A DNA stretch of 64,000 nt from a bacterium (lineage in GTDB: Bacteria; UBA8248): positions 1,536,001-1,600,000 of the forward strand of contig OZ242260.1 of the NCBI GenBank assembly GCA_965207065.1, given 5' to 3'. A program made the position numbers and the translations under genes. Below, in pieces: positions 1 through 25,343 of this stretch (position 1 is the stretch's first letter; each line of letters begins with the position of its first letter). A model generated the notes under the pieces. It ran no database searches. It saw nothing but the letters and a program-made list of their open reading frames with translations, and was not told the DNA's origin.

Positions 1-754
1 TTCCGAACAGCGCCGGCAGGTTGCCGTCCCACAAATGCCGATTTGCAAGCAAGCTCTTTAGGGGAATCTTCGGAATTGGTTTTGTGAGGGGTGAGTGTTG
101 CAATGCAGGCGTAATGGCGACTTGCTTGACGGCAGTGGAAATGACCCGGTTGAGCAGTTCCGTTTTACAAACCAGGTCAATTCGCTTTTTCTCTTCCTCA
201 TCCAGCTCGAAAATAAATTTAATGATATCGCACGCATCCAAAAGACCGATTATCAGGGAATCCCTCGGGTCCGGAATGATATCCGTGAAAATCACCTCCT
301 CGATTCTCGATTTGATGTACCTTCCGACGCTCTCGCTTCGGGGATAACGTTCCAATTCCGCATGCCAGGCGCAGTGGTTCGTTGTGTAAAACTCACCATC
401 ATGGCGCGTCAGAATTTCGGACTTGAGCAAGTGCTTCAGCGTAGCATCGATGATGTCTTCCGAATGAACTGCAAGCCGCTCAATCCAGTATCGCGGTTCT
501 TCCAGATTGGGATGGGATGCGATCTCTTCCAGGCATAAATCCAGTGCCAGGTCGCCTGTTTTGGTTGAATCCAGGAGAAAAAGCGATTCTTCATCTGTAT
601 CAACGCGTGATTTCAAGGAGAGATCGGCCAGAACAGCGCCGATGGTGGCGCAGTTCAACGTCCAGCCCTCCACTTGGTGGAAATAACCGTTCTGCTCGTT
701 GAGAATCGTCAGGATGAATTCTTGCGGGATATTCAACGATTGCTTCGTTATCAT
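1..754 (-). CDS. GPP34/GOLPH3-like domain protein, probably fused to a C-terminal cytochrome P450 (partial, runs off the window)
   Basis: Not in the ORF track because it has no stop in the window. Manual translation from ATG 754 (GGAG 6 nt upstream): MITKQSLNIPQEFILTILNEQNGYF...LNCATIGAVLADLSLKSRVDTDEESLFLLDSTKTGDLALDLCLEEIA...RYWIERLA...IPDPRDSLIIGLLDAC..., which fits the GPP34 pattern. It then continues as Pro-rich SPLTKPIPKIPLKSLLANRHLWDGNLPALFG, like a P450 N-terminus. The P450 part is inferred; no heme motif lies in the window. Confidence 0.7.
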   Translation of the reverse strand, partial: MITKQSLNIPQEFILTILNEQNGYFHQVEGWTLNCATIGAVLADLSLKSRVDTDEESLFLLDSTKTGDLALDLCLEEIASHPNLEEPRYWIERLAVHSEDIIDATLKHLLKSEILTRHDGEFYTTNHCAWHAELERYPRSESVGRYIKSRIEEVIFTDIIPDPRDSLIIGLLDACDIIKFIFELDEEEKKRIDLVCKTELLNRVISTAVKQVAITPALQHSPLTKPIPKIPLKSLLANRHLWDGNLPALFG

Positions 755-834
755 GTTACACTCCATTCCTCGTGATTTGATTCTTTCTCGTGATGCCGAT
801 TCCTGCGGCTTCCGGTCCCCTTTTTTCCATCCCT

Positions 835-3800
835 CTACGAGATCTTCTTTGCCGTTCCGGTTCCGCCGTCCGGCTTCATGTCCACAGCCGCCACTCTTCC
901 AGCCATGACGCGTTGACTTCTCGCCGGTAATATCATGCTCTTTCGTCGCTTCCGGCGACGCTGCTCGTAGAGACCAAGCGCGTGCAGGGGGAAATACTGG
1001 CGGTAGAGCACGTAATCCAGGAGCGCCGTCCGAAAAAAAACGCCGGGCATGTCCTGCTTGGGCCAAGTCCCGTCTGCTTCCTGCGTATTAAGCAGGAAGC
1101 CAGCGCCCCGGGAAATCGCGGCCCAGTCTGTTTCGTCCGCCTTGAGGAGTGCTATCAGCGCCCACGCGGTCTGTATGACCTGGCTTTCCTGATGCGGGAC
1201 GTAGCAACCGCTTAGGCAGCCGCTGTGGTGTTCGCCCCATCCCCCGTCTGGCTGCTGGCGCTCCAGCAGCCAGCGGCAAGACGCGCGCAGCGCCGGATCG
1301 CTTGGACCGGCCCGGTCCGAAACAAGGCCCCAGATGCCGAAAAGGGTGCCGTAGATGTACTGGACCCCCCATACGCCGCGCCAACTGCCGTCAGCCATCT
1401 GGTTCCGTCGCAACCACAAGGCGCCCCGGGCGATGGAGTCGGCAACCACTGACCTGTCGCCAATTTCAGGAAATCGATCCCGGCAGACAGCCAGCGCCGC
1501 GATACAAGACGCGGTACATTCGACAAAAGAATGCTCGGTCATCGATTCGCCGAACATCTCTGCAGGATTCAAGCGCTCCAGATCAATTGCCGAGCGCCTG
1601 GCCTCATAACTGCCGAAGCCGCCGTCGGGGTTCTGGCTTCGCAACATAAAGCCAATCGCTTCGCTGAGCACGGACGAGTCCGTGTCGTCTCCGTGGGCGG
1701 CGACGAGTCCAAGCACCGCCTGCGCCGTGCAGTCACTCACCGGCCAGCCATGCCACCCACCGGCGAAGCACCAGCCGCCTTTGGGGTCAGCGCGGTAGGC
1801 TTCACGAAACCGTTCAAAGCTGATCTTGATCTGTTCGCCGAGCAGAAAATCGGCGCCGCGCCGGAGCGCATCCCGAACACGGTCCGTCTCAGGCATGGTA
1901 GCCAGAGCCTGCAGCGCGAACCCGGTATCCCACGAAGCGCTTCTTGCTCCGGTGACCCGCAAGCCGTCGTCTTCGTCTTCCCATATCCAGGAATCCATTT
2001 TCGATAGCGCCCTTCGGCAATCGGTATCGTCCGGATCGTGCAGCCACAGCGCCAGAATGTTGAGAATGCCGCTGACTGGAGAGATGCTCGTATGGCTGGT
2101 GGTCTGCAGTTCCCATCTGATCTGCCCGAGAATTGCATCCATGCACCGTGTGCGCAGGTGTTTGCTGTGGAACCGCTCGACCAGCCGTGCAAATCTATAT
2201 CCGAGCCTGAGCCAGACGGACGGCCTTGCAAAAAGATCGGCATCCCGAAGCCGGTTCCTAGCGGCGAGAAAATCGGCCCTGGCAAAACCTTGCGGATAAA
2301 GCTCTTCCCGCAACGCAGCGATAACTGGTGTGACGGGCGCCTGGTACCGGCGGGCATAAATCGACGCCATCGCCATATAGATGAGCCGTGTATGGCAGTA
2401 CCAGTTGGAGGGATGCAGCGGTATCTTCCGCGGCAGGCTCCACAATTCCGGCAGAACAGCGTTCACGCCGTTCCAATCATAAAGATTAAGGAGCGCCAGC
2501 CAGAATTTTCCCCAGCTCGGAATGCCGAGAATCCCCTCGGCCTGAATGAACCGCCGGGCCGGCGCGATCAGGGGGTCATCCGGCTCTACACCGAGCAGCC
2601 GCGCCGCGACATAAACGAGGGCGGTGACGAACAGATGGGGCGACGAATGCTCGTGCAGGCCCCATGAACCGTCTTGGAGACGGGTCCTCTCAAACGAGTG
2701 CAGCACCCGGCGCCGCTTTCCCGGATCGAGCGGCTGGCCGATGATGTGGTGGAGCAGTACGTATTGCGCCGTGAGCATGGGACACCAGACCATCTCGCCT
2801 TCCCAGTCGCCGTCCTCTCTCTGCAGTTGCACGAGGCATTGGGCGGCGCTTTCCAGCGCCGGACCGGCATCGGGCGAATCGACCTCTCCGGCGCGGGCGG
2901 GCCGCTCCGATTCGGTTTTCGAAGGGATGGTATAGGGGAATGCCCGTCGTAGGTGCTCTCGCGCTTTCGCGCTTTCCTCCCTTCCTTCCCTGGCCGCCTC
3001 CCTCAACTGGCGGATGCCGAGCAGCAACCACCAAAGGCGAGCAGCCAACGCGCGAAAGTTCACCAATATCCGACGCCATAGAAACCTGCGGATGGAGAAG
3101 GTTGTCTCCCGGCTCATTGCCCGCGCGACAGTTTCGCAAAAGGAGAAAACCGTCATTGGCATGGACAACTCTTGGCAGGCAAGTATCCGCATGGTCCGGT
3201 CCCGATACCCCGAATTCGCTCGCCAGCCCTGGTAAACGGCCTTTCTGAGCATAACCGATTCGGTGCGGTAATCGGTCAACACCTCATAAAGCCCCATGGC
3301 AAGGAACTCGGGAATACGGGTCGCCTGGAACCGCTTTGCGGTGAATTGCTGGAAGTCCTCGCTTTCGGAGAGCGCCAGCGCATCGCCGAAGCCGAGAGTC
3401 ATGCCGACTGCCGTCATGGGATGATAGTGTCCGGCCGCATCGCCGATAAGCACCCGGTGCGGGTTCCCGTACGTGACACGCGGTCTCAACTGGTTGGCGG
3501 CGGCATAGAATCGCCTGACGTGCAGCGCTTCGACGAAGGCCGGCCCGAGATTTCCTGGAAGCAGCCTGCCATAGGATTCAGACAAGAAACTTATCCGGTC
3601 CTTGGAATTCCAACAATCCAATGGGACATCCAGGTTGACCCGGACGGAGCCGTTCGCAAGTCCGTAAATGAAAATTGGACCCGGCCCACCCAGAACCAGA
3701 TGGCCGTATCCTTCAAACAGCAGGTCGGCGTCGTGTAACGTCACCCCGAGCATCCGCGAACAGAGCATCGGGTCCATGGAATATCCCAAGGATCTGCGCA

Positions 3801-4275
3801 CGATCGAAGCGCGGCCGTCGGCGCCGATAATTCGGTCGACATTTATGGCGCATTCCAAGCCATTTCTCGAGAAGGTAATCCGTTCGTCTTCAACGACATT
3901 GACCCGCGCGTGGGAAATGAAATCGACATTGGCCTCGTTCTCAATGACCTCGCGGAGGCTTGAAACGAGCAGCGCGTGGTCGCATACCAGACCCCGTGAA
4001 CCGTCTGGATAAGGAAGCAGGATCGGGTCGGAGTCGTCGTCGGGCAGCACCACGAAACCGACGCCCGACTTGCTGCCGGACAGCGTGTCGACATCAATCC
4101 CGATGTCACGCAACAACTTCACTCCCGGCGGATGCAACCATTCGCCTGCAAGGCGTTTAGACGCTTTCGGATTCGCTTCGAGCAGGGCCACCTTAACGCC
4201 CTTGCGCGCAAGGACAATTGCGCATACGCTTCCCACCGGTCCCGCGCCGATAATGGCGGCATCATACTTCGGCAC
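835..4275 (-). CDS. Squalene epoxidase / oxidosqualene cyclase fusion protein
   Basis: N-half: GAGPVG (FAD), RLAGEWLHPPG, GADG, LIGDAAGHYHPMTAVGMT (squalene monooxygenase motifs). C-half: QW repeats, IPSWGKFWL, WYCHTR, HGWPVSDCTAQ, LNPAEMFG, VECTAS, DGSWRGVWG, YRQYFPLHALG (OSC motifs). GTG at 4275 has GAGGAG upstream. Confidence 0.92.
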   Translation of the reverse strand: MPKYDAAIIGAGPVGSVCAIVLARKGVKVALLEANPKASKRLAGEWLHPPGVKLLRDIGIDVDTLSGSKSGVGFVVLPDDDSDPILLPYPDGSRGLVCDHALLVSSLREVIENEANVDFISHARVNVVEDERITFSRNGLECAINVDRIIGADGRASIVRRSLGYSMDPMLCSRMLGVTLHDADLLFEGYGHLVLGGPGPIFIYGLANGSVRVNLDVPLDCWNSKDRISFLSESYGRLLPGNLGPAFVEALHVRRFYAAANQLRPRVTYGNPHRVLIGDAAGHYHPMTAVGMTLGFGDALALSESEDFQQFTAKRFQATRIPEFLAMGLYEVLTDYRTESVMLRKAVYQGWRANSGYRDRTMRILACQELSMPMTVFSFCETVARAMSRETTFSIRRFLWRRILVNFRALAARLWWLLLGIRQLREAAREGREESAKAREHLRRAFPYTIPSKTESERPARAGEVDSPDAGPALESAAQCLVQLQREDGDWEGEMVWCPMLTAQYVLLHHIIGQPLDPGKRRRVLHSFERTRLQDGSWGLHEHSSPHLFVTALVYVAARLLGVEPDDPLIAPARRFIQAEGILGIPSWGKFWLALLNLYDWNGVNAVLPELWSLPRKIPLHPSNWYCHTRLIYMAMASIYARRYQAPVTPVIAALREELYPQGFARADFLAARNRLRDADLFARPSVWLRLGYRFARLVERFHSKHLRTRCMDAILGQIRWELQTTSHTSISPVSGILNILALWLHDPDDTDCRRALSKMDSWIWEDEDDGLRVTGARSASWDTGFALQALATMPETDRVRDALRRGADFLLGEQIKISFERFREAYRADPKGGWCFAGGWHGWPVSDCTAQAVLGLVAAHGDDTDSSVLSEAIGFMLRSQNPDGGFGSYEARRSAIDLERLNPAEMFGESMTEHSFVECTASCIAALAVCRDRFPEIGDRSVVADSIARGALWLRRNQMADGSWRGVWGVQYIYGTLFGIWGLVSDRAGPSDPALRASCRWLLERQQPDGGWGEHHSGCLSGCYVPHQESQVIQTAWALIALLKADETDWAAISRGAGFLLNTQEADGTWPKQDMPGVFFRTALLDYVLYRQYFPLHALGLYEQRRRKRRKSMILPARSQRVMAGRVAAVDMKPDGGTGTAKKIS

Positions 4276-4279
4276 CGAG

Positions 4280-5359
4280 TCAGCGCTCCTCAAAGGGCGC
4301 TGAGTACAGCGCGGCGGCGGTTGTGAAGGGCAGGTCGCCGTCCTGGATCGAGAGCAGGAACGTTTCCGGACCCTCGATCTCGTCATCATGCTCGGTGGGA
4401 ATAGAGAAGCGGTACCGGGGCCACCCCGCCGGGATAGTCAAATTGTAGGGGCCGCCCGTGTAGTCCCCTTGTTCCGACGCGGTCTGGTCCGTGTTCACCA
4501 ATGTAACAGTTGTATTCGTGAACCGAGGCCACGAGAACATCAGTTTCCATCTCGAGCACCTCGCCTTTGGCCACCGAGTTGGCGTTGTCCAGATACTCAA
4601 CACGCTTGTCAGGTCGCTGTGCGTCACGGTCTGCTGGCCGGCGTGCCCACGGGCAGGCCGCAGGCGACGTTGGTGTTGCTTGCCCTCGCTCCCGAAAACG
4701 ACGTTCAGCGTCCCTTCGTAGGCGTTGCCTTCTTCTAGGTTCGCCACTGGGGTGAGCATGATGAGCGCCTACTGCACCACGTTCGTGGCGAGGCCGGTGA
4801 AGGTCAGAGTCAGGTCACTTCCCGTACCGGACACCGTAACGCTGGTTCCGGTGGTGGCGTAGGAGTAGTCCGAGGTCACGTGATTGGTGTTGCGGACGGT
4901 GGTCGAGTTAGTGCCTATGCCGATGGAGAAGTGCGCCACGTCGTCCGTCAGCAGCCGCTGGCCGAGCTTGACCCTGACCTGCGCCGTGTCGGTCGCGTCG
5001 CCTTCGGTCATCCACGTATCCATCGCCTCGAAGGAGACCGTGACCTGCGCGGTGGCCTCGTCGGCAAAACCCGCCGACAGCAGGACAGGCAACAGCAAGG
5101 ACAGGAAGAGACGGTGCGGGGAAAAGGTGGTCCGTTTCCAGGGCGTGCGTCCCGGGGCGCCGATTCTTTTGCGGAGTCCGGAAGCCGCGCCGCGCGGACC
5201 GGAGCGGCGGGAAAACTCAGGCGGTGAGGCTGGAAGGCAAAGGCAGCGCCGCCATGCGGTAACGCTCATGGCCGACGTTCGGTTCGGTTCGGTTCGGTTC
5301 GGTTCGGTTCGGTTCGGTTCGGTTCGGTTCGGTTCGGTTCGGTTCGGTTCGGAGAACAT
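4280..5359 (-). pseudogene. Calx-beta domain surface protein/adhesin, disrupted and truncated
   Basis: Signal-peptide-like LFLSLLLPVLLSAGFADEATAQ. An in-frame TAG at 4769-4771 joins the 265-aa and 159-aa ORFs, and there are further apparent frameshifts. Calx-beta motif TASEQGDYTGGPYNLTIPAG...IPTEHDDEIEGPETFLLSI. Confidence 0.7.
5277..5351. repeat. Pentanucleotide microsatellite (GTTCG)x15, encoding (EPNRT)x5 on the minus strand
   Basis: Perfect tandem repeat, directly visible. Confidence 0.98.
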
Positions 5360-5855
5360 GGTGAAGAACGCTCTCGTCCGGCTTGTCAAGCCCTGATATG
5401 AAGCTTTTCTGCTATTGAAGAAGGCCCGAAAAACCAAGGGGAATGTTGCAAGGCGGCGCGCATCTTCGGTCTCCTTAAAGAATGGGAATAATTCAGCAAA
5501 GTTAACAAAGATTTTAGAGATTAACTTCATCATTGAGTTCATCGAATCTTGATCCTGAATGGTCAAATTAAGCGTTTATGTTTGCAAATGCTTCTTTCAT
5601 ATCTTGAGCCGTTATCCGGTTCCTTGCATAGATTCATACTATTCATTTTTGTATTGGCGTCAGCCGGAACGGATCGGGCCGAATGCCGCTTAACCTATGA
5701 GTTTTGGAGTGGGCTCCTGCGTATTCACTCGAGAATGAGGGCTTGTATTTCGAAAGCGATCCCATTATCGGGTCAACCCGCAAACCATGTTGCATTGAAT
5801 ACCTTGGCTATGTCAACGAAATTTGTCAAGAAAAATTGATTTGAAATATTTGGCA

Positions 5856-8966: not shown

Positions 8967-9265
8967 TCATTCCAATAATCCCGGCAATTCGGGCGCGACT
9001 TCTGAGATATTCCGGTTGATTTGTACGATTTCCTCCTCTCGTCCGTCCCGATCCATTTTGCGTATGATGGCCTGCGCCGCGAACATCGCGGAGCGAAGCA
9101 GGTGGATTTCCGCCTCGGTTCGCGGCCATTCGCGACGCTCCAGGGCCTCCATCGCGAGTTCGACCACGAGTCTGTCGGGTGAATTTTCCCGCCATTCGGC
9201 TTCTTTTCGAGGCGCTTCCACTGATCTGATTTCACCATGACGTTGATTTGTATCGTCCGGAGCAC
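8967..9265 (-). pseudogene. Small plasmid/ICE-type protein (RHH/MobC-like), frameshifted
   Basis: MLRTIQINVMVKSDQWKRLEK continues in another frame at an A-run as EAEWRENSPDRLVVELAMEALERREWPRTEAEIHLLRSAMFAAQA. The strand-helix-helix pattern suggests RHH. Confidence 0.45.
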
Positions 9266-9938
9266 CGGTTTTGCTGCTTCTTCATGAAATTTTTCACCCT
9301 GATCGATCGCAAAACGGGCCGGAAAAATCCCGTTTTCTGCATCGGGTGCACTACATTTTGAGCGCGTGCACCTTCAAATTGCCCCGGCCCATGAGATACC
9401 AGACTGGTATCCATCATAGCGCAGCGCAGGCCTGCTCGATACCAATTCAGTATCTCCGCAGGGGAAAGGCCATTCGCTGCTACCGCCGGTCACTCGATCC
9501 ATCCATATGAGGGGCAAGCGGAGCGCAGGCATTCGCATCATGGGCGACCCGCCACCTGAAAGATATCAGGATGGTATTACATTTTCCGGCGCGACGGGAG
9601 CACTCAGGAATACGAATTTTCACGGCATACTGCACGCAGTCGTATCACTGTAACACCAGCATCAGCGATGCGTCGGGTGTACTGAAAGAAACGCCGAAGG
9701 GCGGCTAGCGCAGGGATTCTTAGGAACGCGAGTCGAGGGGAATCATGCCGGTGAGAATGGCGAGCGGGAGCCGTCGCGGCGATTGAGCGCGAGGAGCAAT
9801 GCGGGGAGTTGTTCCTGCGGCAAGACCAGTGGAGTCTTCATCGTTGCCGGCGCAAGCGGCGCGAGCGTTGGTCGACGAGACGCAAAGGGCCGCGCCGCCG
9901 CCGGGCGGGGTGGCGACGCGACCCGAGGTGTTTTCGCG

Positions 9939-10898
9939 TCAGGCTGCAACGCGCTGGACGGGGATACCGAGGGTTTTAGCTTTGTCGACGAGGTTGTCGG
10001 TGATGCCCGAACCCGGGAACGCGATCACGCCCTTGGGCAGGAGTGCGAGGAGTTCGTCGTTCCTGCGGAAGGGAGCGGCCCTGCCGTGGGCGTCCCAATC
10101 CGGTTTGCAGACGACCTGGTGGACGCCGTTCCGCTCGGCCCATCCCGCCGCTATCTTCTCCGCACCGGGGCCGCCGCCGTGGACGAGAACGACGTCGGCG
10201 TACTTGGCCTTGACCTTGTCGAGGTGGCCGATGATTTTGCCCGCATCGCTCGCCTCCTTGCCTCCCGCGACGGCGACGAGGGTTCCCTGGGGCAAGTGGG
10301 CCGTGTTCTCGCGGTCCTTTCTGGCTCGCTGGAAGTCGCGCGCCTCGATGACAGCGGAGGTGAGCTTGCCGGTCTGGCTGACGTGGGAACCTCGCCTCGG
10401 CCGCCATACCTCGCCGGTCTCGATGCGGTAGGCTTCTGCTGCCGTGTCCCTGAGTCCCTCGAAGGCGTCCCTGCGCTCCGTGAGGTTGTTGGCCCGGTCG
10501 GTCTTGAGTTCGAGTTCACGCGACCTGATCTCGGAGCCGTCCTGCTCACGCTGTAGTTCGCGGACCCCGGGGATGAGCCTGTCGGCGGCGCGGTCGAGGC
10601 GTTGTGTCTGTGCGTCCAGGGTGTTGACGAAGCCCCAGAGGAGGTTTCTTCGCTCATCCGCGAGCTGCGTTCCATCGGGCACGGCTTCTGCGAGTGCGCT
10701 GAAGGCCTTGATGACGGCGGCGGTTGCTTCGCCCTCGTCCCACACGGGGCGGTTGTCGAACTCATCAGGCCCGGGCGTGGCGCCGAACAGGGCGGCCTGC
10801 TCGCAGACCATGGCGGTGAAGGATTCGTTCTGCGCTTCGTGTTCCGTGTGCTCGTGCATGTTCATCTCCTTGTGGTCATGAGTCGCGGTGGCAGTCAT
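9939..10898 (-). CDS. DUF2493 (YspA/SLOG-like) domain protein typical of ICEs/plasmids
   Basis: LLWGFVN, TGEVWRPRRGS, VLVHGGGPGAEKIAAGWAERNGVHQVVCKPDWDAHGRAAPFRRNDELL, IAFPGSGITDNLVDKA. AAGGAG RBS. Confidence 0.85.
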   Translation of the reverse strand: MTATATHDHKEMNMHEHTEHEAQNESFTAMVCEQAALFGATPGPDEFDNRPVWDEGEATAAVIKAFSALAEAVPDGTQLADERRNLLWGFVNTLDAQTQRLDRAADRLIPGVRELQREQDGSEIRSRELELKTDRANNLTERRDAFEGLRDTAAEAYRIETGEVWRPRRGSHVSQTGKLTSAVIEARDFQRARKDRENTAHLPQGTLVAVAGGKEASDAGKIIGHLDKVKAKYADVVLVHGGGPGAEKIAAGWAERNGVHQVVCKPDWDAHGRAAPFRRNDELLALLPKGVIAFPGSGITDNLVDKAKTLGIPVQRVAA

Positions 10899-10947
10899 CG
10901 TTCACTCCTTTCAGTGATTGGGTTTTCAGCCGTTGGTTCGGTTGTCC

Positions 10948-11319
10948 TCAAGCGAGGGGATGGTTGAATTCGGGAAGAGCGAAGCCACGCTCGTTGCGCC
11001 CCACTTCTTTGGGCATCTCGTCGAGATATTTGGCTGCCCACTCGGCGGCGCGTGCGAGGACGTCGCCGTGGCACGGGAGGGGCCAGCAGTGACAGCCGAG
11101 CTCGCAGCCAAGGAGGTCGGCGAGTTCGTAGAGGTCGAGCTCCTGGCGCTGGATTTTTCCCCACAGCCATCGCCGGTATTTCTCGATCACGACGTCGCGG
11201 TCGCCGTCGGCACCGACCCGGAAGGGGTTTCCCCACTTCGTCATGCGGTCGATCCTGACCAGCAAGCCACTGCCGTTTTCTGCGATATAGTCGTTCAGGT
11301 TCACCACGGTGGTTTCCAT
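10948..11319 (-). CDS. DUF4326 domain protein
   Basis: RIDRMTKWGNPF...VIEKYRRWL...LGCHCWPLPCHGDVL. AGGAG RBS. Confidence 0.85.
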   Translation of the reverse strand: METTVVNLNDYIAENGSGLLVRIDRMTKWGNPFRVGADGDRDVVIEKYRRWLWGKIQRQELDLYELADLLGCELGCHCWPLPCHGDVLARAAEWAAKYLDEMPKEVGRNERGFALPEFNHPLA

Positions 11320-11354
11320 GCCTTTCTCCTTTCCAGAGAGTTAACGGATATGCT

Positions 11355-11585
11355 TCTTAGCGCCTCATTTTCAGCACGTAAGGGCATCGGGCGGTGTTGC
11401 CGATGCCCGTAGGCGGGCGAATCAAGGGCTTGTCATTTTCCGGGGGGTTCCCGAAAAACACGGTTCATAGAGCGGCGCTCCTGTTTTTTGCCGCTCGACG
11501 TTTTTGGGGGGGCACCGGCAAATGATGGCCGCTTGCGGCCACCCTTTATTCGCTCGGCGTTCGTGCTAAAATGAGGACGCTAAGA
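11355..11585. promoter_or_regulatory. Large branched inverted repeat; candidate Frpo-like ssDNA promoter
   Basis: Arms 11355-11378/11562-11585, 11414-11428/11542-11556 and 11431-11459/11500-11528. The right arm carries TTTATT-N16-TAAAAT with an extended -10 TG. Confidence 0.65.
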
Positions 11586-11934
11586 GAGAGACATCAGTAC
11601 CGCCACCGGGACACAAGAGTTTTTGGTGTTTCACGATGAAGGCGAAGCTCATCGGGAAACATCCCTTCATGCTGCGGAAAGGGTCATTTCGGGCCGTTTT
11701 TTCCGGCCCGAAATTCCCGCAGCGGGGGGTGGACCGAGCCACTGTCTTGAGTATGGAGTGAGTGCAGGCGCCTGCAGATCTTCCGTGAACATGGTTTACC
11801 GTTCACGGAACCGGAGATTCCTCGGGTGCTCCCGGTAGACGAGAGAAGCCGACAAGGCGGGAAAGACGAGTGCCTCATCCATGGCTGCGGGAGAGGGTGT
11901 TCGGGGCATGACGGACCTCCTCTGGATAACAAGC

Positions 11935-11968
11935 AAAAAAAGGGGCCGGCGCCGTAACGCCGACCCCC
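11935..11968 (-). terminator. Rho-independent terminator after ssb
   Basis: GC hairpin followed by T7 on the minus strand. Confidence 0.75.
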
Positions 11969-11976
11969 CGGGGTGA

Positions 11977-12417
11977 TCAGAATGGAATGTCTTCGCCCAC
12001 TACGCCTGCCGCCACCACCGCCGTCTCGGGGTGCGCGCCATTGCCGTTGCCATTTCCGTTCCCGTTCATCTTCTCCAGGAACTGCACCCGCCCGCCGGGC
12101 GCGATGAGGATCTCGGTCGAGAACCGGTCCGAGTCTTCCTCGTCCTTCTTCCAGCGCCTGGTCTGGAGCTTGCCCGCGACGTAGACCAAGCGGCCCTTCT
12201 TCGCGTGCTTTTCGAACATGTCCACCAGGCCCGGCTGGAAGGTGACGACCCGGTGCCACTCGGTCTTGTCCACCCGATCGCCGGACTGCTTGTCGACGTA
12301 GCCCTCGTCGGTGGCGATCGAGAGGTTGGCGACGCGTCCGCCGCTCGCGAGATGGTTGATGGTGACGTCGGCGCCGAGACGCCCGATCAGTTCCGCTCTG
12401 TTGAGTCCGAATGCCAT
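11977..12417 (-). CDS. ssb: Single-stranded DNA-binding protein (mobile-element type)
   Basis: LNRAELIGRLGAD, TEWHRVV, KGRLVYVAGKLQTRRW, C-terminal DIPF. Confidence 0.95.
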   Translation of the reverse strand: MAFGLNRAELIGRLGADVTINHLASGGRVANLSIATDEGYVDKQSGDRVDKTEWHRVVTFQPGLVDMFEKHAKKGRLVYVAGKLQTRRWKKDEEDSDRFSTEILIAPGGRVQFLEKMNGNGNGNGNGAHPETAVVAAGVVGEDIPF

Positions 12418-20451: not shown

Positions 20452-21626
20452 CCGGCCCTCCTGTTCGTGATGTGAATCCCGATACTCCCGCCCACCCGTA
20501 CCGCCGCCTCCCTCTCGGCCTCGCGCATCAGGTGCGCGTAGCGCGCGCTCGTCGCCACGCTCGTGTGCCCGAGCAGCTTGCCTATCGTGTATAAACTCTC
20601 GCCCAGCGCCAACGCCCTCGACGCGTAGGAGTGCCTGAGGTCGTGGATGCGCACGTCATGGAGCCCCGCCCGCTCCCTGATCGGCCGCCAGTAGTGGTGC
20701 AGGCCCGTGAGATGCTTCCCGGGTCTTTGTCCTGCGAATATCCAGGGGTTCTCAGGCAGCCTGGGAATGGCGTCCAGTATCCCGAGCACCGGCTTCGTCA
20801 GGGGGACCATCCGGGGACCCGCCTTGGCGTCCCTCAAGCGCAGATCGCCCGCCGTGCGGTCCACGTCGTCCCACCCGAGGCTCAGTATCTCGCCCCTGCG
20901 GCACCCGGTCAGGACGAGCAGCCGGATCGCCGCAACCGCGGGCGGCCATGTCCCGTCCTCCGCCTCGGCTTGCCTGAGCGCACGGCCCAGGCGCCGGTAT
21001 TCCTCAGGCGTCAGGAACCGCTCCCTCTTGCGCGTCCTGTAGCGGCGCACCGAGAGGCAGGGGTTCCGCCCGGGTGGGACCAGTTCCCACGCCTCGGCAA
21101 GGGTGTACATCCGCGAGAGTAGATGGACGGCCGCGTTGGCCCGGGCGGGCGTGGCCCTGAGCCTGTGATGAAGCGCCGTGACTTCCGCCCCGCCGACTTC
21201 TTCCAGCGCCATCCCGCCCAGGGCCGGCAGGATGTATTTGCCGAGCACCGTGCGGTACGCCGAGGCGGTGGCTGGCTTGAGATGCCGCTCCACGTGGATG
21301 CGCATGAAGCGCTCTGCGAGTCCCGATACGGTGGACTCCGCCTCGTGTGGTGGGGGTATTGGCTCTTCGCCCTGCTTGATGCGGTCGATGAGGAGGGCGG
21401 CCTGTTTCCTCGCCTCGTCGACGGTCAGTTCCCCGTGGTGGCCGAGCGTCACGCGCTTCGGACCCCCGGGTCCCCGGGACTGCACCACCCAGGTCTTCCT
21501 TCCCGTAACGTGGACTCGCACACCCAAGCCCGCCAGCTCCCGGTCCCAGAAGATCGCGTCCTTCCCGTCGGCCTCGAGCGCGTCGACGGTGCGCTTAGTG
21601 AGTTTCAGATCGCTTCGCTTCGGCAT
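20448..21626 (-). CDS. Tyrosine recombinase/integrase with N-terminal arm-binding domain
   Basis: WDRELAGLGVRV; LTGCRRGE, DAKAG, HDLRHS, LLGH, RYAH. Confidence 0.95.
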   Translation of the reverse strand: MPKRSDLKLTKRTVDALEADGKDAIFWDRELAGLGVRVHVTGRKTWVVQSRGPGGPKRVTLGHHGELTVDEARKQAALLIDRIKQGEEPIPPPHEAESTVSGLAERFMRIHVERHLKPATASAYRTVLGKYILPALGGMALEEVGGAEVTALHHRLRATPARANAAVHLLSRMYTLAEAWELVPPGRNPCLSVRRYRTRKRERFLTPEEYRRLGRALRQAEAEDGTWPPAVAAIRLLVLTGCRRGEILSLGWDDVDRTAGDLRLRDAKAGPRMVPLTKPVLGILDAIPRLPENPWIFAGQRPGKHLTGLHHYWRPIRERAGLHDVRIHDLRHSYASRALALGESLYTIGKLLGHTSVATSARYAHLMREAEREAAVRVGGSIGIHITNRRAG

Positions 21627-22180
21627 CCCACCTCCTGAAATATGTAATCAAAACGCATACGTTCGGCTTCATACTGGAGGGTATCAGAGCATACGTGTGA
21701 CGAAAGCGCAAGGGGGGTCGGAGTGGGGAATAAGAAAAATATGGCATTATAAACAATCAGTTATCGTAGACAAACGGAGTCAATGGTGCCATTGCGTGTT
21801 CAACGACTTCATGGCAATAATTAATCGAAATTTACGGAAATTCCGTCTCGTCCCGATTCGGCGGTTCACTGGTCAAACGGGACCAATACCGGAGCGATGG
21901 AAGCAACAGATGATTCAGCTGATTGCCGACCGGAGAGTGAAGATTTGCGCGATGCCTCGGGTGGCGCATCATACTGGACGCACGGATTTCATGGAGCACG
22001 GCAAATGCGGGCAATTGCGCGTCCGCTCCTCGGTCTGGAAAAAGGGGTTCCCGGGCGATGAGGTGGCGCGCCTGCGTCGCAGATTCGTCGGGTGGCGCGT
22101 GAAAGGCGCATCTTCTTTTCGTCCCGAGCGAAAATAAGTTTCAGGAAAGTGAAAAACGGGTGCTACAATGGGTCGTTTCC

Positions 22181-23638
22181 ATGAAAAAGGAGCGCGCCTT
22201 GGAGAGAAGCCTGTTCGATCAGCCAGAAGAAGACGGCGGAGCGCAGGAACCCCGGCTCGATCCGGCGGCGCCCCTGGCCGAGCGCATGCGCCCCCGCACG
22301 CTCGATGAGGTCCTGGGCCAGGATCACCTCATCGGCCCGGGCCGCGTGTTGAGGCGCGCCGTGGAGGAAGACGCCCTGCGCCCGCTCATCTTCTGGGGAC
22401 CGCCCGGCACGGGCAAGACGACGCTCGCGCGCATCATCGCGAACAGGACGAACGCGCACTTCATCACGCTGAGCGCGGTGCTCCACGGGGTGAAGGAATT
22501 GCGCGCCGCCGTGGACGAGGCGAAGCGCATGCAGCGCAGGAGCGTCCGCACGATTCTGTTCATCGACGAGATCCACCGCTTCAACAAGGCCCAGCAGGAC
22601 GGCCTCCTGCCACACGTTGAAAACGGCATGCTCACCCTCATCGGCGCCACGACGGAAAACCCTTCCTTCGAGGTCATCGCGCCCCTGCTCTCCCGCGCGC
22701 GCGTGTTCGTGCTCGAAGGATTGAAGGAAGAGCACGTCGTCGCGCTTCTCCGCCGCGCCCTGGAAGACGCCGAGCGGGGCTTGGGCGCCATGAAGCTCGA
22801 AGCCGAGGATGACGCGCTGCGCCGCGTCGCGGTCTTGAGCAGCGGGGACGCGCGCTCGGCGCTCAACATTCTGGAAGCCGCTGCCGCTTTGGCCGGTGAG
22901 AGCCGTCGGGTCGATGCCGCATTGGTGGGCGAGGCCGCCCAGCGCAAGACGCTGCTCTACGACAAGGCGGGCGAGGAGCACTTCAACCTCATCTCCGCCC
23001 TTCACAAGATCCTGCGGGCTTCCGATCCCGACGCCGCGCTCTACTGGCTCGCGCGCATGCTCGAGGGGGGCGAAGACCCCATGTACATCCTGCGGCGCCT
23101 CGTGCGCTTCGCCTCCGAAGACGTCGGCATGGCCGACCCGAATGCGCTCGCCGTGGCGACCGCCGCCCAGGGGGCGTTCCACTTCATCGGCCTCCCCGAG
23201 GGGAAGCTCGCCATCGCCCAGGCGGTGGTCTATCTCGCCCAGGCGCCCAAGAGCGACGCGGTCTACCGGGGCTTCGGGGCCGCCGAGCGCGCCGTGCGCG
23301 AGCGCGACGCCGCACCCGTCCCCCATCACCTGAGGAACGCGCCCACCGGCCTCATGCGCGATCTGGGCTACGGCGCGGGCTACAAGCACGCGCACGAGTT
23401 CGACGACGCGGTCGTGGAGATGGAGGGCATGCCCGAAGGGCTGCAGGGTACGCGGTTCTACCACCCCACCTCCCGGGGGTTCGAGGCGGAGGTCCAGAAG
23501 AGACTCGCCATACGCGAGGAGAAACTGAACGAGCGCCTCGGCGAACGCCTGAACGTGCCCGATGAGAAGTCCATGGACGACCGCCGCCCCTCCGACCCCG
23601 CCATGCCCGGCAGAAGGGCGCGGCGCAAGGATAAATAA
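22181..23638 (+). CDS. rarA: Replication-associated recombination protein A (AAA+ ATPase)
   Basis: PLAERMRP, GPPGTGKTT, DEIHRFNKAQQD, ATTENPSF, FASEDVG. Alternative TTG start at 22199. Confidence 0.96.
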   Translation: MKKERALERSLFDQPEEDGGAQEPRLDPAAPLAERMRPRTLDEVLGQDHLIGPGRVLRRAVEEDALRPLIFWGPPGTGKTTLARIIANRTNAHFITLSAVLHGVKELRAAVDEAKRMQRRSVRTILFIDEIHRFNKAQQDGLLPHVENGMLTLIGATTENPSFEVIAPLLSRARVFVLEGLKEEHVVALLRRALEDAERGLGAMKLEAEDDALRRVAVLSSGDARSALNILEAAAALAGESRRVDAALVGEAAQRKTLLYDKAGEEHFNLISALHKILRASDPDAALYWLARMLEGGEDPMYILRRLVRFASEDVGMADPNALAVATAAQGAFHFIGLPEGKLAIAQAVVYLAQAPKSDAVYRGFGAAERAVRERDAAPVPHHLRNAPTGLMRDLGYGAGYKHAHEFDDAVVEMEGMPEGLQGTRFYHPTSRGFEAEVQKRLAIREEKLNERLGERLNVPDEKSMDDRRPSDPAMPGRRARRKDK

Positions 23639-23700
23639 CCAAGTATAGAGAATTGCACTTTTGGTTTGCCAAATGAAAGAGGGAATGGGACGAGCAGCGA

Positions 23701-24171
23701 CTATTTTTCGCTTTCCCTTTTCCGTCGCATGAATATGACCGGATGCCCATAGAGGTCACCGCTTACATTGTTCAACTCCCTGTGCGCGATATCTTCTGAT
23801 GGTCCAAGTTTGCTGGTCCACCACCCATTTTCTAATTGTCGCGCTGCATGTTTCGGAACATTGCCTTTAGCGAAGATAACTATTTTTTCATATTCTTCTT
23901 CCAATGATCCGTCATCGCATTTCTTGTATCCAAGCGTTTCAAATGCAGCGCTAAAAGCCTCAAGGGTTTCTTCCATGGGAACATTTTGAGGCCAAAATAT
24001 CCGTTCTAATTGCTCGTCTATCTCACAGGGCCACCACCAATGTTCATCATCGGCAGCTGCCCAAGCTATGCAATTATAATTTTCCGTAGGACTACTTGTT
24101 ACGATGTGATTATTTTTATTGAGGAGGGGAAATAGTACGTAGAAATCTTCTCCTAAACGATCAAAAGACAC
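23701..24171 (-). CDS. Hypothetical protein with Cys/His motifs (possible papain-like fold)
   Basis: YNCIAWAA, WWWP, HAARQLENGWWTSKLG, DIAH. AT-rich. Confidence 0.7.
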   Translation of the reverse strand: MSFDRLGEDFYVLFPLLNKNNHIVTSSPTENYNCIAWAAADDEHWWWPCEIDEQLERIFWPQNVPMEETLEAFSAAFETLGYKKCDDGSLEEEYEKIVIFAKGNVPKHAARQLENGWWTSKLGPSEDIAHRELNNVSGDLYGHPVIFMRRKRESEK

Positions 24172-24595
24172 CTTTTCTCTTCCCCCACGAAAGCCATGAC
24201 TGCACTATTTTCGAAGGGTTTCCATGGGCGCTCTTTGGGACTGGGTTCTCTCCAGTGATTTTTTTAAGCGCGTGAATCCAAAAATTAGGTTTGTTTTTTT
24301 CTAGATCCAATTGCCTCAATATCATAGGAACCGCCCGTTCTCCCATCGCTATTATTTTTCGATAGGATGGACATGCAGTAATATCCGAAATGGATGACAT
24401 TACTTTTTTTTCCATGTTCCATTTTGCCAATAAATGCTCAAAGTCCGTCAGGTCTAAAATTCCTCTGCCCCACGACCTGGTGTGCCGGACGAATTTGGCG
24501 CTTCTGACGATATCGGCAGTAGTTTCCAATGCCTCATCCCTGGGCTGAATTGTTTCCGTTCCCGTCTGCTCAAAATCTATATTCGCTATATCCAC
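24161..24595 (-). CDS. Hypothetical helical protein
   Basis: PSYRKIIAMGERAVPMILRQL...WIHALKKITGENPV...WLSWG. Overlaps the next gene. Confidence 0.7.
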   Translation of the reverse strand: MDIANIDFEQTGTETIQPRDEALETTADIVRSAKFVRHTRSWGRGILDLTDFEHLLAKWNMEKKVMSSISDITACPSYRKIIAMGERAVPMILRQLDLEKNKPNFWIHALKKITGENPVPKSAHGNPSKIVQSWLSWGKRKGVF

Positions 24596-24596
24596 T

Positions 24597-24860
24597 TTAT
24601 GAAGTCCTCTCTTTCAATTCCTCGGGTGCTTCTAATACTGAGACAACTTGCTGGTGTTTGATGAGATAATAAGGGTTTCCTTCATCATCCCATTTACCAT
24701 GCACTCTAACAGCACGCACAAGCATCGTTTTTATTCCCAATACCGTTCCATCATCTAGCGTATACTCAACCAATGCCTCAGTAGATTTTGTGATCGGAAT
24801 ATTCAAACCTTCCACTTCCGTTCCATCTATGTCTTTTGTTTTAATTTTTCGGTATGCCAT
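24597..24860 (-). CDS. Hypothetical beta-rich small protein
   Basis: EYTLDDGTVLGIK...WDDEGNPYY. First gene of the AT-rich operon. Confidence 0.7.
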   Translation of the reverse strand: MAYRKIKTKDIDGTEVEGLNIPITKSTEALVEYTLDDGTVLGIKTMLVRAVRVHGKWDDEGNPYYLIKHQQVVSVLEAPEELKERTS

Positions 24861-25343
24861 CCTGGAACCCTTTTTGTGGAACAGATTATGCGTACCATCA
24901 CGATACCTAATAAATTATAGGATAGATATACCCACTTGCAACGAGGTACTTTAATCTAAAGAGTATTTGATTTTCACAAAAGATCAAAAGGCGGCTTTCT
25001 CTTTCCCTTACCATCATAGCAACTGACCCTGATGCTCAAATCGATAAATTGTTATAAATATTCAACAGCTGCATTTTAATGAACTTGCATTTATTTGAAA
25101 TGACTAAAAAAATTTTGCTCATTAGCTAATGGTCTCTGCTCATTTTCGCCTCACGACAGCCACCATGCACACTCATTTCGCGCTTGAGGTTCTTCTGCAA
25201 ATTAAGGAGTTATGGCGTAATAGCGTCAGGAAGGCGCAATAATTTAAAAATAGAGCACGCTTTCAGATAGACTGGTTCGACCACATAATATTCACCATAC
25301 GCGGGAGCGATCCCATATCTTGAATATTCTAGTGGCGCAATTA

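Follow-up and report, generated by a model that had tools for sequence, protein, structure and literature searches.

At the left end of a 64,000-nucleotide stretch of bacterial DNA (the window), a gene for a squalene epoxidase (SE) fused to an oxidosqualene cyclase (OSC) is followed on the same strand by a gene that joins a GPP34 domain to a cytochrome P450. What do these two fusion proteins do together? On balance, sequence comparison suggests that with a third gene, encoding an RND transporter, they constitute a mobile module for making, tailoring and exporting a lanosterol-type sterol in sponge-associated bacteria. Both fusions have been published before, the SE-OSC as MsbE and the GPP34-P450 protein as GPP34_L. 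According to an initial annotation of this DNA, SE-OSC and a GOLPH3-like domain are not known to be paired in any characterised system, a statement that holds for the main texts searched. What goes beyond print is the linkage of GPP34_L to sterol and RND genes, the replacement of its phosphatidylinositol 4-phosphate (PI4P) residues, its kinship with CYP51, and the mobile three-gene block.

The squalene epoxidase-oxidosqualene cyclase fusion

The msbE-like SE-OSC gene occupies positions 835..4275 of the minus strand and encodes 1146 aa from a GTG at 4275 to a TAG stop at 835-837. The longest open reading frame (835..4389, minus strand) starts at the first ATG, 4389, and would yield 1184 aa according to the ORF list and translation. 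The contig's recorded protein is 1146 aa long, matching the GTG start, and the block shared with related locus L005 stops at position 4336, upstream of GTG 4275 and short of ATG 4389. In 1184-aa numbering, the squalene epoxidase (FAD monooxygenase) domain comprises residues 42-416 (3142..4266, minus strand), the linker residues 417-512 (2854..3141, minus strand), and the oxidosqualene cyclase domain residues 513-1142 (964..2853, minus strand). Pfam assigns FAD_binding_3 (42-341, 69 bits) and SE (188-416, 73.1 bits, cut-off 20.1) to the N-terminal half, and SQHop_cyclase_N (513-807, 182.6 bits) and SQHop_cyclase_C (817-1142, 184.2 bits) to the OSC half. No Pfam domain falls between 416 and 513, where the linker contains a hydrophobic, Arg/Trp-rich stretch. 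The epoxidase domain carries the FAD motifs GAGPVGS (4228-4248), GADGRAS (3805-3825) and GDAAGHYHPMTAVGM (3400-3444), and matches human squalene monooxygenase (6C6N) with an E-value of 1.7e-25.

Both domains lie in one frame with no stop between them, in agreement with the single 1146-aa chain first described from its motifs, and misassembly does not account for the fusion. The linker is bridged over 2777-3657 with 0 differences and 0 gaps by contigs of run X3, from a second sample, and contigs of run X1 span it without indels over 2777-4400. In addition, a single tblastn segment covers SE and OSC in 16 of the 19 related loci holding the fusion gene, the remaining three being interrupted by a contig or locus end.

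The cyclase half, with its catalytic-acid motif VSDCTAQ at 1720-1740, aligns to human lanosterol synthase (1W6K) over residues 505-1146 (E 9e-134) and keeps D455, C456 and V453 of that enzyme. It differs in being fused to an epoxidase and in having Q for E459, a position that is E in 17 relatives. V453 and H449 are kept in 17/17 relatives, and V453 is the lanosterol rule for bacterial OSCs (PMC4919349). Animal lanosterol synthases carry T381/C449, whereas A381/H449 are found here. The domain scores 504 bits with TIGR01787 (cut-off 322.7) and 720.8 bits with TIGR03463 (osq_cycl), below the curated cut-off of 851. A381/H449 depart from both the lanosterol and the cycloartenol triads, so that the product may be another tetracycle.

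Sterol clusters of sponge symbionts are known (PMC9531527), and "fused SMO/OSC homologs" are named in the methods of Brown 2023 (PMC10070321). The closest published counterpart is MsbE, which a gammaproteobacterium living in symbiosis with the sponge Melophlus sarasinorum encodes in its msbA-F sterol locus (Mohanty 2020, PMC7074536). MsbE is likewise a single chain from sponge-microbiome bacteria, with an N-terminal epoxidase bearing flavin-binding residues and a C-terminal cyclase bearing the lanosterol-synthase valine. The accessible parts of PMC7074536 describe no biochemical test of MsbE, report the genes flanking the msb locus on both sides as dissimilar to sterol genes, and do not mention P450. 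Related loci (e.g., L015) resemble the msb locus in their order of SdmB-like, SdmA-like, ERG24, CYP51 and SE-OSC genes. The window's locus, in contrast, is without msbA-D and msbF, and SE-OSC is followed instead by GPP34_L and the RND gene.

A three-gene block and its genome

The 5′ part of the GPP34_L gene lies at 1..754 on the minus strand. It starts at ATG 754 (MITKQ), which is the start type of GPP34_L relatives with their MITKQ-type N-termini, or at the alternative ATG 766. The gap to the SE-OSC stop is 80 nt, as originally given, or 68 nt, depending on which of these starts is chosen. The gene extends past the window's left end to G000:C1:1534736, 1265 bases left of base 1, and a whole-genome reading gives a full protein of 672-676 aa. 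Its GPP34 domain (~170-730 in the window) scores 79-80 bits in Pfam (cut-off 29.1). The suspected continuation into a P450 was confirmed by the left extension, which reveals a P450 domain (Pfam, 76.8 bits) with an ExxR motif (E538, R541) and a heme cysteine (C617) that are invariant across 20 relatives. PF05719 and PF00067 occur together in 118 of the 120 best GPP34_L homologues.

Beyond GPP34_L, and convergent to it and SE-OSC, lies a gene for an MMPL/sterol-sensing-domain RND transporter that the initial annotation missed. The protein has 12 helices in ~780 aa, a sterol-sensing-domain-like bundle, and Pfam scores of 120 bits for MMPL and 31.1 bits for Sterol-sensing (cut-off 22.3). RND proteins of the HAE3/MMPL kind include HpnN, a hopanoid transporter, and BstA, a sterol transporter. 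The protein resembles both in its 12-helix, sterol-sensing-domain-like form and its gene's place beside triterpenoid genes, but scores far below the curated cut-offs of these families (HAE3, 190/352; HpnN, 107/752; BstA, 20/1400). No BstB- or BstC-like partners were identified in the block's locus.

The two fusion genes share a strand; the operon proposed for them is uncertain: GPP34_L has its own conserved leader (755..928, minus strand), overlapping the final ~30 codons of the SE-OSC open reading frame, and this leader is common to the RND gene. A copy that is 73% identical over ~150 nt lies directly upstream of the RND gene in the same relative orientation. In L004 and L005, too, blastn places the leader at each of the two genes; in L006 its 3′ ~90 nt precede GPP34_L, and in L008 they precede the RND gene. 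It matches no Rfam family, and its consensus fold is weak.

Together the three genes form a block of 8.3 kb here, and the stretch shared with other metagenome-assembled genomes (MAGs) spans 8.3-10 kb. Its identity is 94.2% with L005 and 96.8% with L004, two other MAGs in which the flanks differ, and in the window's genome the block adjoins two recombinases, three transposases and a restriction-modification pair. The horizontal acquisition proposed earlier fits these observations; the block looks mobile, and the bacterium carrying it is of a kind found in marine sponges. All three genes are under purifying selection, with dN/dS of 0.15-0.52 in four comparisons, SE-OSC being elevated (0.33-0.52) in the two closest.

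Linkage to sterol and transport genes

Among related loci from many phyla, 80 were kept, of which 78 have a called GPP34_L; neighbourhoods extended to 10 kb. At least one sterol enzyme is encoded near GPP34_L in 61 of the 78, an RND transporter in 63 (MMPL/SSD in 52, AcrB-type in 11), and one or the other in 71. The commonest enzymes are SMT and a KshA-like Rieske oxygenase (35 loci each), followed by SE-OSC (17), ERG24 (12), SdmA-like (8), SdmB-like (6) and CYP51 (6). SE-OSC lies within 10 kb of GPP34-P450 in 19 of all 80 loci, and the compact sterol cassette envisaged at the outset does therefore recur elsewhere. The three genes' identities to relatives do not co-vary and gene order differs between loci; the three genes have not always been passed on together.

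Such linkage also fits a less probable reading, in which GPP34_L and the RND protein handle host sterols through uptake, modification or recycling, and SE-OSC is adjacent through its dealings with the same lipid class. Among the 33 genomes searched in which GPP34_L has no SE-OSC nearby, 23 lack any OSC (13 with only a hopene-cyclase type, 10 with no cyclase), and GPP34_L is thus not dependent on home-made sterol; in many of these genomes it occurs with SMT, the KshA-like Rieske oxygenase, a flavin oxidase and RND. Its pairing with RND (63/78) is commoner than that with SE-OSC (17/78), and the leader shared by GPP34_L and RND genes is absent from the SE-OSC gene. Against this, in the window's own GPP34_L clade 16 of 26 loci have SE-OSC no more than 10 kb away, and OSC was found elsewhere in all seven genomes searched from the other ten, which places an OSC in every searched genome of the clade. 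Moreover, all three genes travel in a block that is 94% conserved between genomes. The squalene supply genes are also kept (HpnC, 465.8 bits; HpnD, 450.1; HpnE, 290.6; all over cut-offs), with SE-OSC as the sole squalene/oxidosqualene cyclase in the 4.48-Mb genome. Handling of host sterols and a module for the bacterium's own sterol are mutually compatible.

For the substrates, products and direction of transport in the make-tailor-export module, and for what the GPP34 domain does in it, we infer the following. The HpnC/D/E route would supply squalene to SE-OSC, which would epoxidise it and cyclise the epoxide to a lanosterol-type tetracycle. GPP34_L would act on the sterol as a cytoplasmic, membrane-peripheral heme enzyme, and the MMPL-type RND protein would extract the sterol from the inner membrane, analogous to HpnN with hopanoids.

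The GPP34 and P450 domains

Long GPP34 proteins with a cytochrome P450 have been called exclusive to sponge symbionts (Microbiome 2025;13:4, PMC11706023). They share with the present protein both domains, a length of ~670 aa and a spread across numerous phyla of sponge-associated bacteria. The authors propose a eukaryote-like effector that binds phagosome PI4P and blocks maturation, with the P450 as an accessory, whereas here the gene context is one of making and modifying sterols and of lipid transport. The effector role seems improbable for this protein, even though its architecture is published from sponge symbionts only, as far as that paper's accessible text goes, and its GPP34 profile matches the GOLPH3/Vps74 fold (3KN1, E 8e-7). 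In that alignment, which is of profiles and not a structural superposition, the GOLPH3 PI4P-site residues W81, R90, R171 and R174 (PMC13408441) correspond to W35, I42, E103 and I106. W35 is invariant and preserves W81, but the other three are replaced, in relatives by I/V/A, E/Q/H and I, respectively, and the stretch around W161 is missing. Further, the N-terminus, read by eye, has no hydrophobic signal-like segment, the neighbouring genes encode sterol enzymes and lipid transporters and are not secretion genes, and the invariant ExxR and cysteine suggest catalysis inside the bacterium. The accessible main text of PMC11706023 contains no occurrence of sterol, squalene or cyclase, and reports no test of the PI4P residues. 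The linkage of GPP34_L to sterol genes points to another job than the one proposed. Without the GOLPH3 PI4P pocket, its GPP34 domain would more likely serve as a membrane anchor or in lipid hand-over.

The P450 domain appears to be a distant CYP51 relative in which the usual threonine for oxygen activation has been lost. Its best PDB sequence matches are CYP51 (E 2e-14, residues 251-648), and the best fold match is Methylococcus capsulatus CYP51 (6MCW; TM 0.80 on target, model pLDDT 81.8). The latter, CYP51fx (6MCW/7JJ1), acts in the sterol pathway and is the closest relative of the domain with a solved structure, and true CYP51 genes occupy the same clusters in relatives. GPP34_L differs in having an N-terminal GPP34 domain in place of a C-terminal ferredoxin, and the HT(S) of CYP51 is not kept, "HT" aligning to non-matching residues in what is one divergent alignment. 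As the I-helix threonine is missing and no redox partner genes are encoded near GPP34_L, ordinary mono-oxygenation is not assured.

Among 24 OSC-bearing genomes, a CYP51-type match (one CYP51 query) was absent from six, the window's included; two others had only fragments and one only P450s at 28-29% identity. GPP34_L is kept in all nine. The distribution of the msbC-type C14-reductase mirrors that of CYP51: it was found in all 15 genomes that have an intact CYP51 but in none of the other nine. A C14-reductase is needed after 14-demethylation. That GPP34_L replaced CYP51 as sterol 14-alpha-demethylase in such lineages, the window's among them, is more improbable still: its CYP51 kinship and retention in the nine genomes agree with the idea, but loss of the C14-reductase together with CYP51 suggests that the entire step was abandoned, 15/24 genomes carry both GPP34_L and CYP51, GPP34_L scores 56 bits to CYP51 vs 362 for the true CYP51 of related loci, and the "HT" is unmatched.

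With the queries used, CYP51, C14-reductase and SdmA/SdmB were not found anywhere in the window's genome, and its lineage appears to have lost them; the end product should therefore retain its 14-methyl and 4,4-dimethyl groups. It may be altered further by GPP34_L and by a second locus, where another GPP34_L (39% identical) adjoins an MMPL/SSD RND gene, SMT, a KshA-like Rieske oxygenase and a flavin oxidase, together with LolA-like and DUF1302-like genes.

The squalene epoxidase-oxidosqualene cyclase fusion

The genome from which the window is drawn (G000) is a single contig (C1) of 4.48 Mb, of which the window covers G000:C1:1536001-1600000. Its squalene epoxidase-oxidosqualene cyclase (SE-OSC) fusion is encoded on the minus strand. 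The open reading frame (ORF) runs from window position 4389 to 835 and comprises 1184 aa. Translation from the GTG at 4275 yields the 1146-aa single chain of the initial annotation, which is also the length of the protein on record for the contig. Pfam identifies both kinds of domain in this one ORF, with SE/FAD monooxygenase matches at residues 42–416 and two squalene-cyclase domains at 513–1142 (numbering of the 1184-aa ORF). No stop codon separates the epoxidase from the cyclase, and the linker is spanned by contigs of an independent sample with 0 indels.

The epoxidase half scores above the Pfam cut-off for SE (PF08491; 73.1 bits versus 20.1) and matches FAD_binding_3 at 69 bits. It carries FAD fingerprints of the GxGxxG, DG, and GD types (GAGPVGS, GADGRAS, and GDAAGHYHPMTAVGM) and aligns to human squalene monooxygenase SQLE (6C6N) with an E-value of 1.7e-25. 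For the cyclase half, the alignment to human lanosterol synthase (1W6K) has an E-value of 9e-134. The best curated model for this half is TIGR03463 (osq_cycl), although at 720.8 bits it falls short of its cut-off (851); TIGR01787, which covers squalene and oxidosqualene cyclases in general, is passed with 504 bits (cut-off 322.7), and the hopene-cyclase model stays under its cut-off (265 bits versus 431). Hopene cyclases carry a DxDD motif where OSCs have a motif of the (V/I)SDCTAE type. In the window's protein, VSDCTAQ aligns to human V453-S-D455-C456-T-A-E459, which is the OSC-type catalytic-Asp motif. Human position 453 is Val in the window's SE-OSC and in 17 of 17 relatives; Val at this position denotes lanosterol synthases and Ile cycloartenol synthases, a rule that held for the bacteria tested (PMC4919349). 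Positions 381 and 449 are A and H, respectively, and neither the lanosterol nor the cycloartenol triad is matched in full.

SE-OSC fusions are widespread, with 965 matches, the best 120 of which are all 1044–1184 aa long and contain both domain kinds. “Fused SMO/OSC homologs” are named in the methods of PMC10070321, and literature searches found no fusion from myxobacteria, the source to which the initial annotation had pointed. Directly upstream of SE-OSC (window 4280–5566, minus strand) are two ORFs of 159 and 265 aa, the first with a weak Calx-beta match and the second with five tandem EPNRT repeats; no Pfam family scores above its cut-off in either.

The GPP34-P450 fusion protein

The next gene 3′ of SE-OSC, on the same strand, encodes a GPP34-cytochrome P450 fusion protein (GPP34_L). 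The intergenic gap, initially given as 80 nt, has this length when measured from the ATG at 754, the start used by relatives, and is 68 nt from the ATG at 766. The expectation that the gene continues leftward into a P450 with its characteristic motifs was borne out in the 19 kb examined to the left of the window. The complete gene encodes 676 aa with a GPP34 domain (residues 13–199) and a P450 domain in which ExxR and the heme cysteine are present. Both domains exceed their Pfam cut-offs (PF05719, 79.3–80.2 bits versus 29.1; PF00067, 76.8 bits versus 22.8), and both occur in 118 of the 120 best homologues, which range from 647 to 691 aa. Among 20 aligned relatives, E538, R541, and C617 do not vary, nor does the PERF-like arginine R594. 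The heme-loop consensus is Y-G-L-[DG]-T-H-x-C-x-G, with N in place of Y in the window's protein.

By sequence, the P450 domain is nearest to CYP51 (E 2e-14, 56 bits, residues 251–648). An AF2 model of GPP34_L (pLDDT 81.8) displays a P450 fold; 6MCW is its nearest structural match (TM 0.80 on the target), and P450 BM3 follows closely. At related loci, true CYP51 reaches 362 bits to the Methylococcus capsulatus (M. capsulatus) enzyme, as compared to only 56 bits to CYP51 for GPP34_L. Judged by similarity and by co-inheritance with a C14-reductase, GPP34_L would lie outside the CYP51 family. In P450s, oxygen activation depends on an acid-alcohol pair in the I-helix, A/G-G-x-D/E-T. In one divergent HMMER alignment, the CYP51 I-helix sequence AGHHTS is opposite QSIYL-G of GPP34_L, with Thr facing L485, and the usual oxygen-activating threonine is therefore absent from GPP34_L. 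The family instead conserves S482, Y484, G486, and D487 in this region.

In the main text of PMC11706023, GPP34_L is described as a hallmark of symbiosis by which the phagosomes of the host are manipulated. There, the protein accounts for 656 of 663 long GPP34 proteins, occurs only in sponge symbionts, of many phyla, and is proposed to bind PI4P and block phagosome maturation. Record titles of GPP34_L relatives include Candidatus Poriferihabitaceae and bins with names in the style of sponge studies, and a sequencing run labelled “sponge metagenome” (X8) holds contigs of relatives at 85–95% identity. The link to GOLPH3 emerged solely from a profile built on the N-terminal 240 residues (3KN1, E 7.8e-7; Vps74, E 1e-5). 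A phmmer search of the whole protein against the PDB returned P450s only, and Foldseek with the full model gave only P450 chains among the matches listed. PI4P binding by GOLPH3 involves W81, R90, R171, and R174 (PMC13408441), and the main text of PMC11706023 does not look at the corresponding residues of GPP34_L. In a profile alignment, as distinct from a structural superposition, W81 is kept as the invariant W35 and the three arginines are replaced: R90 by I42 (I/V/A in relatives), R171 by E103 (E/Q/H), and R174 by I106 (I). On these residues, GPP34_L would not be a PI4P effector of the GOLPH3 type, and we infer another lipid- or membrane-related role for its GPP34 domain. The protein as a whole is read as a cytoplasmic, membrane-peripheral sterol enzyme.

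Sterol genes near GPP34_L and in the window's genome

A scan of one genome per species revealed at least 587 stretches encoding GPP34-P450 relatives, of which the best-scoring 80 loci were used, a sample hence biased toward relatives of the query. ORFs within ±10 kb were called by a simple longest-ORF rule and clustered by blastp, and recurrent clusters, which are threshold-dependent, were named with Pfam and NCBIfam. By the submitters' record titles, the 80 loci derive from MAGs of Binatia, Alpha- and Gammaproteobacteria (including Candidatus Poriferihabitaceae), Arenicellales, Bryobacterales, Nitrospirales, Latescibacterota, Longimicrobiales/Gemmatimonadaceae, Chloroflexota/Dehalococcoidia, and Opitutia.

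Neighbours were counted for the 78 loci in which GPP34_L was called. One or more sterol enzymes lie within 10 kb at 61 loci, an RND-superfamily transporter at 63, and one or the other at 71. Individually, the neighbours within this distance are an RND transporter of the MMPL type with a sterol-sensing domain (MMPL/SSD; 52 loci), a sterol methyltransferase (SMT; 35), a KshA-like Rieske oxygenase (35), a flavin amine-oxidase-family protein (25), SE-OSC (17, or 19 of 80 by tblastn), ERG4/ERG24 (12), a LolA-like protein (12), an AcrB-type RND transporter (11), SdmA-like (8) and SdmB-like (6) proteins, an LppX-like protein (6), and a true CYP51 with the 362-bit score to M. capsulatus CYP51 (6). None of the counted genes is found at nine loci (L013, L019, L023, L024, L027, L043, L046, L067, and L083), among them several short contigs and the two loci at which clustering missed the GPP34_L ORF.

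Sterol gene clusters in sponge-symbiont MAGs, Binatota included, are already known (PMC9531527; PMC10070321). The main texts of PMC11706023, PMC10070321, and PMC7074536 draw no link between GPP34 or the GPP34_L P450 and sterols, and no literature linking GPP34/GOLPH3 with sterols in symbionts was found in a search of main texts. The steady sterol context of GPP34_L thus appears not to be in print.

In a FastTree phylogeny of 88 rows, the window's protein falls within a starred 28-row clade, with six CYP51s across the midpoint root. The clade is made up of 24 Pseudomonadota, one Acidobacteriota, one Binatota, the window's protein, and that of the related locus L004. SE-OSC lies ≤10 kb from GPP34_L at 16 of its 26 loci. 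Genomes were searched for seven of the other ten, and all seven possess an OSC elsewhere (six fused, one unfused). Beyond the clade, SE-OSC is nearby at 3 of 54 loci. Among 33 searched genomes without a nearby SE-OSC, 23 are without any OSC, comprising 13 with hopene-cyclase-type genes only and 10 with no cyclase, as classed from score and frame length. By this distribution, the GPP34_L family as a whole goes with sterol-type chemistry and lipid transport, and a tie to de novo cyclisation is confined to the window's clade.

A very regular module occurs in Chloroflexota/Dehalococcoidia (loci L035–L082), consisting of a flavin oxidase, a KshA-like Rieske oxygenase, GPP34-P450, SMT, an MMPL/SSD RND transporter, and often an LppX-like lipoprotein. 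These genomes have hopene-cyclase-type genes only, or no cyclase; the substrate of the module cannot be a home-made sterol.

In the window's genome, HpnC, HpnD, and HpnE all score above curated cut-offs. A Nudix/MutT-like N-terminus, HpnC, and HpnD share one 719-aa ORF at G000:C1:4145207-4147366 (L093:5207-7366, minus strand), adjoined by HpnE at L093:3851-5206 (minus strand); the ORF could represent a true fusion for squalene synthesis or result from the way ORFs were called. SE-OSC is the sole cyclase, so squalene has one cyclising consumer. The published msb locus of a sponge symbiont, as described in the main text of PMC7074536, unites SE-OSC with CYP51, a C14-reductase, SdmA/SdmB-like proteins, and SMT, whereas the window's locus holds only the homologue of its fused SE-OSC gene, msbE. 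The queries used detected no CYP51-type gene, msbC-type ERG24 (C14-reductase), SdmA-like gene, or SdmB-like gene in the genome, a result that in MAGs is not the same as absence.

The SMT of the window's genome is 920 kb away, in a second sterol-type locus at G000:C1:602630-616078 (L092, 601001-613000) that encodes flavin amine-oxidase-family, LolA-like, DUF1302-like, GPP34-P450, TPR, MMPL/SSD RND, KshA-like Rieske oxygenase, and SMT proteins. Its GPP34-P450 is 681 aa long and 39% identical to the window's GPP34_L. The genes of this locus are 41–79% identical to cluster representatives from other MAGs, with the flavin oxidase (AmOx), SMT, and Rieske oxygenase 69–79% identical to genes of other classes or phyla.

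Because CYP51 is the nearest sequence relative of its P450 domain, it could be supposed that GPP34_L simply replaces CYP51. Across 24 OSC-bearing genomes, an intact CYP51 and an adjacent msbC-type reductase are found in the same 15, where GPP34_L coexists with both, and are missing together from the same nine, where GPP34_L is kept. Intact CYP51 is also missing from eight of nine genomes checked in the window's 16-row subclade. CYP51 fragments remain in two of the nine genomes without the intact gene: one of 127 residues at G003:C1:205308-205688 (genome of locus L017), ~2.5 kb from that genome's SE-OSC, and one of 80 residues at G042:C1:2346863-2347102 (genome of locus L021). Both are 65–69% identical to an intact CYP51, both genomes belong to the window's GPP34_L subclade, and the fragments look like remnants of a lost 14-demethylation step. 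Since CYP51 and the msbC-type reductase are missing from the same genomes, the lineage of the window seems to have dropped 14-demethylation as a whole. This speaks against plain replacement of CYP51 by GPP34_L, which is down-weighted, and predicts a lanosterol-type end product.

Two other candidates for missing steps were set aside. A weak ERG4/ERG24 homologue at G000:1358022 (113–115 bits to the Pfam model, 99 bits to the msbC-type ERG24) was rejected as a sterol C14-reductase, as its neighbours are unrelated and a similar ~100-bit homologue also exists where the msbC type is present. A 467-aa stand-alone P450 is not CYP51-like, with 7WZL and CYP3A4 as best PDB hits. It is present in two copies with identical scores (G000:C1:2239064-2240377, minus strand; 2282091-2283404, plus strand), ~42 kb apart and inverted, which indicates a large duplicated segment.

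Transporter, shared leader, and apparent mobility of the three-gene block

The third gene of the cassette converges on the GPP34_L gene. Its product, an RND protein of the MMPL type, is 779 aa long and matches a sterol-sensing domain. The Pfam models MMPL and Sterol-sensing both score above their cut-offs, and all curated RND models are under theirs (HpnN TIGR03480, 107 versus 752; NF052374, 39 versus 1100; BstA, 19.6 versus 1400; HAE3, 190 versus 352). A leader of ~150 nt, 73% identical between copies, lies upstream of both the GPP34_L gene (window 755-928, minus strand) and the RND gene (G000:C1:1532077-1532217, plus strand; L003:14077-14217). The copies have the same orientation relative to each gene and end just before the start codons; that of GPP34_L overlaps the last codons of the SE-OSC ORF. 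L004 and L005 likewise have the leader at both genes, and its 3′ ~90 nt recurs before GPP34_L in L006 and before the RND gene in L008. It was discounted as a structured RNA, given no Rfam family (one chance-level match, E 0.46) and a weak fold (−4.3 kcal/mol, 2 of 13 pairs compensatory). A scan of the RND/GPP34_L region yielded two promoter-like and two terminator-like sites, fewer than in shuffled sequences, with none between SE-OSC and GPP34_L. The shared leader suggests a common promoter, operator, or 5′ UTR. It also hints at co-regulation of GPP34_L with the transporter, and at transcription of GPP34_L that need not be joined to that of SE-OSC.

The three genes look horizontally mobile as a block. 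L005, from a Binatia MAG, shares a single block of 8262 nt with the window's genome at 94.2% identity, extending from just upstream of the RND gene to window position 4336, just upstream of the SE-OSC start; the L005 flank matches a different part of the window's genome at only 70–74%. The stretch in common with L004 is longer (10,019 nt, 96.8%), and the L004 flanks match dispersed positions, some of them repeated. The cassette has its nearest named relative in a Candidatus Binatia MAG. To the left of the block are two tyrosine recombinases, three transposase genes or fragments, and an NgoFVII-type restriction-methylase pair. G+C content is 57–60% over the window's first 8 kb versus 62–67% from 10 to 24 kb. 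Cross-phylum identities of the three proteins (57–79%) fit repeated transfer among sponge-associated bacteria; the three values do not run in parallel, and loci differ in gene order. Many of the loci are on single-contig chromosomes, which argues against binning errors.

A decaying remnant is a less likely description of the cassette, as all three ORFs are intact and dN/dS is 0.15–0.52 for all three genes in four comparisons (highest for SE-OSC in the two closest); these ratios point to purifying selection on each gene. The cassette is real and well preserved, and the initial description of it was accurate. Its parts are known in print; what is new is their make-up here, three genes in one mobile block, carried by a lineage from which the remaining pathway has been lost.

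A reading that joins these observations, which we regard as rather doubtful in its entirety, would make the block a self-contained, horizontally travelling module that makes, tailors, and exports sterols, with symbionts of unrelated phyla supplying or remodelling the sterols of sponges. GPP34_L would be a new kind of P450, derived from CYP51 and devoid of the threonine, that acts on sterols in the membrane by a route other than the ordinary activation of oxygen. The GOLPH3-fold domain would have been re-purposed from phosphoinositide binding to membrane docking, or to sterol hand-over to the SSD transporter, whose gene has the same regulatory leader. The “eukaryote-like effector” of PMC11706023 would then be a lipid-metabolic enzyme, and bacterial 14-methyl or side-chain-alkylated sterols from such modules would also bear on the sponge sterane biomarker debate. 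The steady linkage of GPP34_L to sterol and lipid-transporter genes, together with the lost PI4P pocket, offers a testable alternative to the effector hypothesis. Since sponge sterols and steranes serve as the oldest chemical evidence for animals (PMC10070321), it matters who makes or modifies sterols in the sponge holobiont. The minimal cassette is a handy test object, with three intact genes in a genome in which no CYP51, C4-demethylase, or other cyclase was found. The naturally fused SE-OSC is also of practical interest as a way to channel squalene into lanosterol.

Other possible signs of insertion were observed in the window's genome. A ~3.2-kb element upstream of the cassette in L004 (L004:874-4075) has five long copies (2.5–3.3 kb) in the window's genome, for example at G000 positions 21183-24455, 77332-80540, 910919-914038, 2319288-2322381, and 4449594-4452139. 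Shorter matches occur at five further places, with one shorter set at window ~8980-12333; identity is 80–89% for long and shorter matches alike, and the element is a high-copy repeat or mobile element. Finally, window positions 24001-26000 have a G+C content of 47%, versus 61–67% around them, and this stretch may be another foreign insert.
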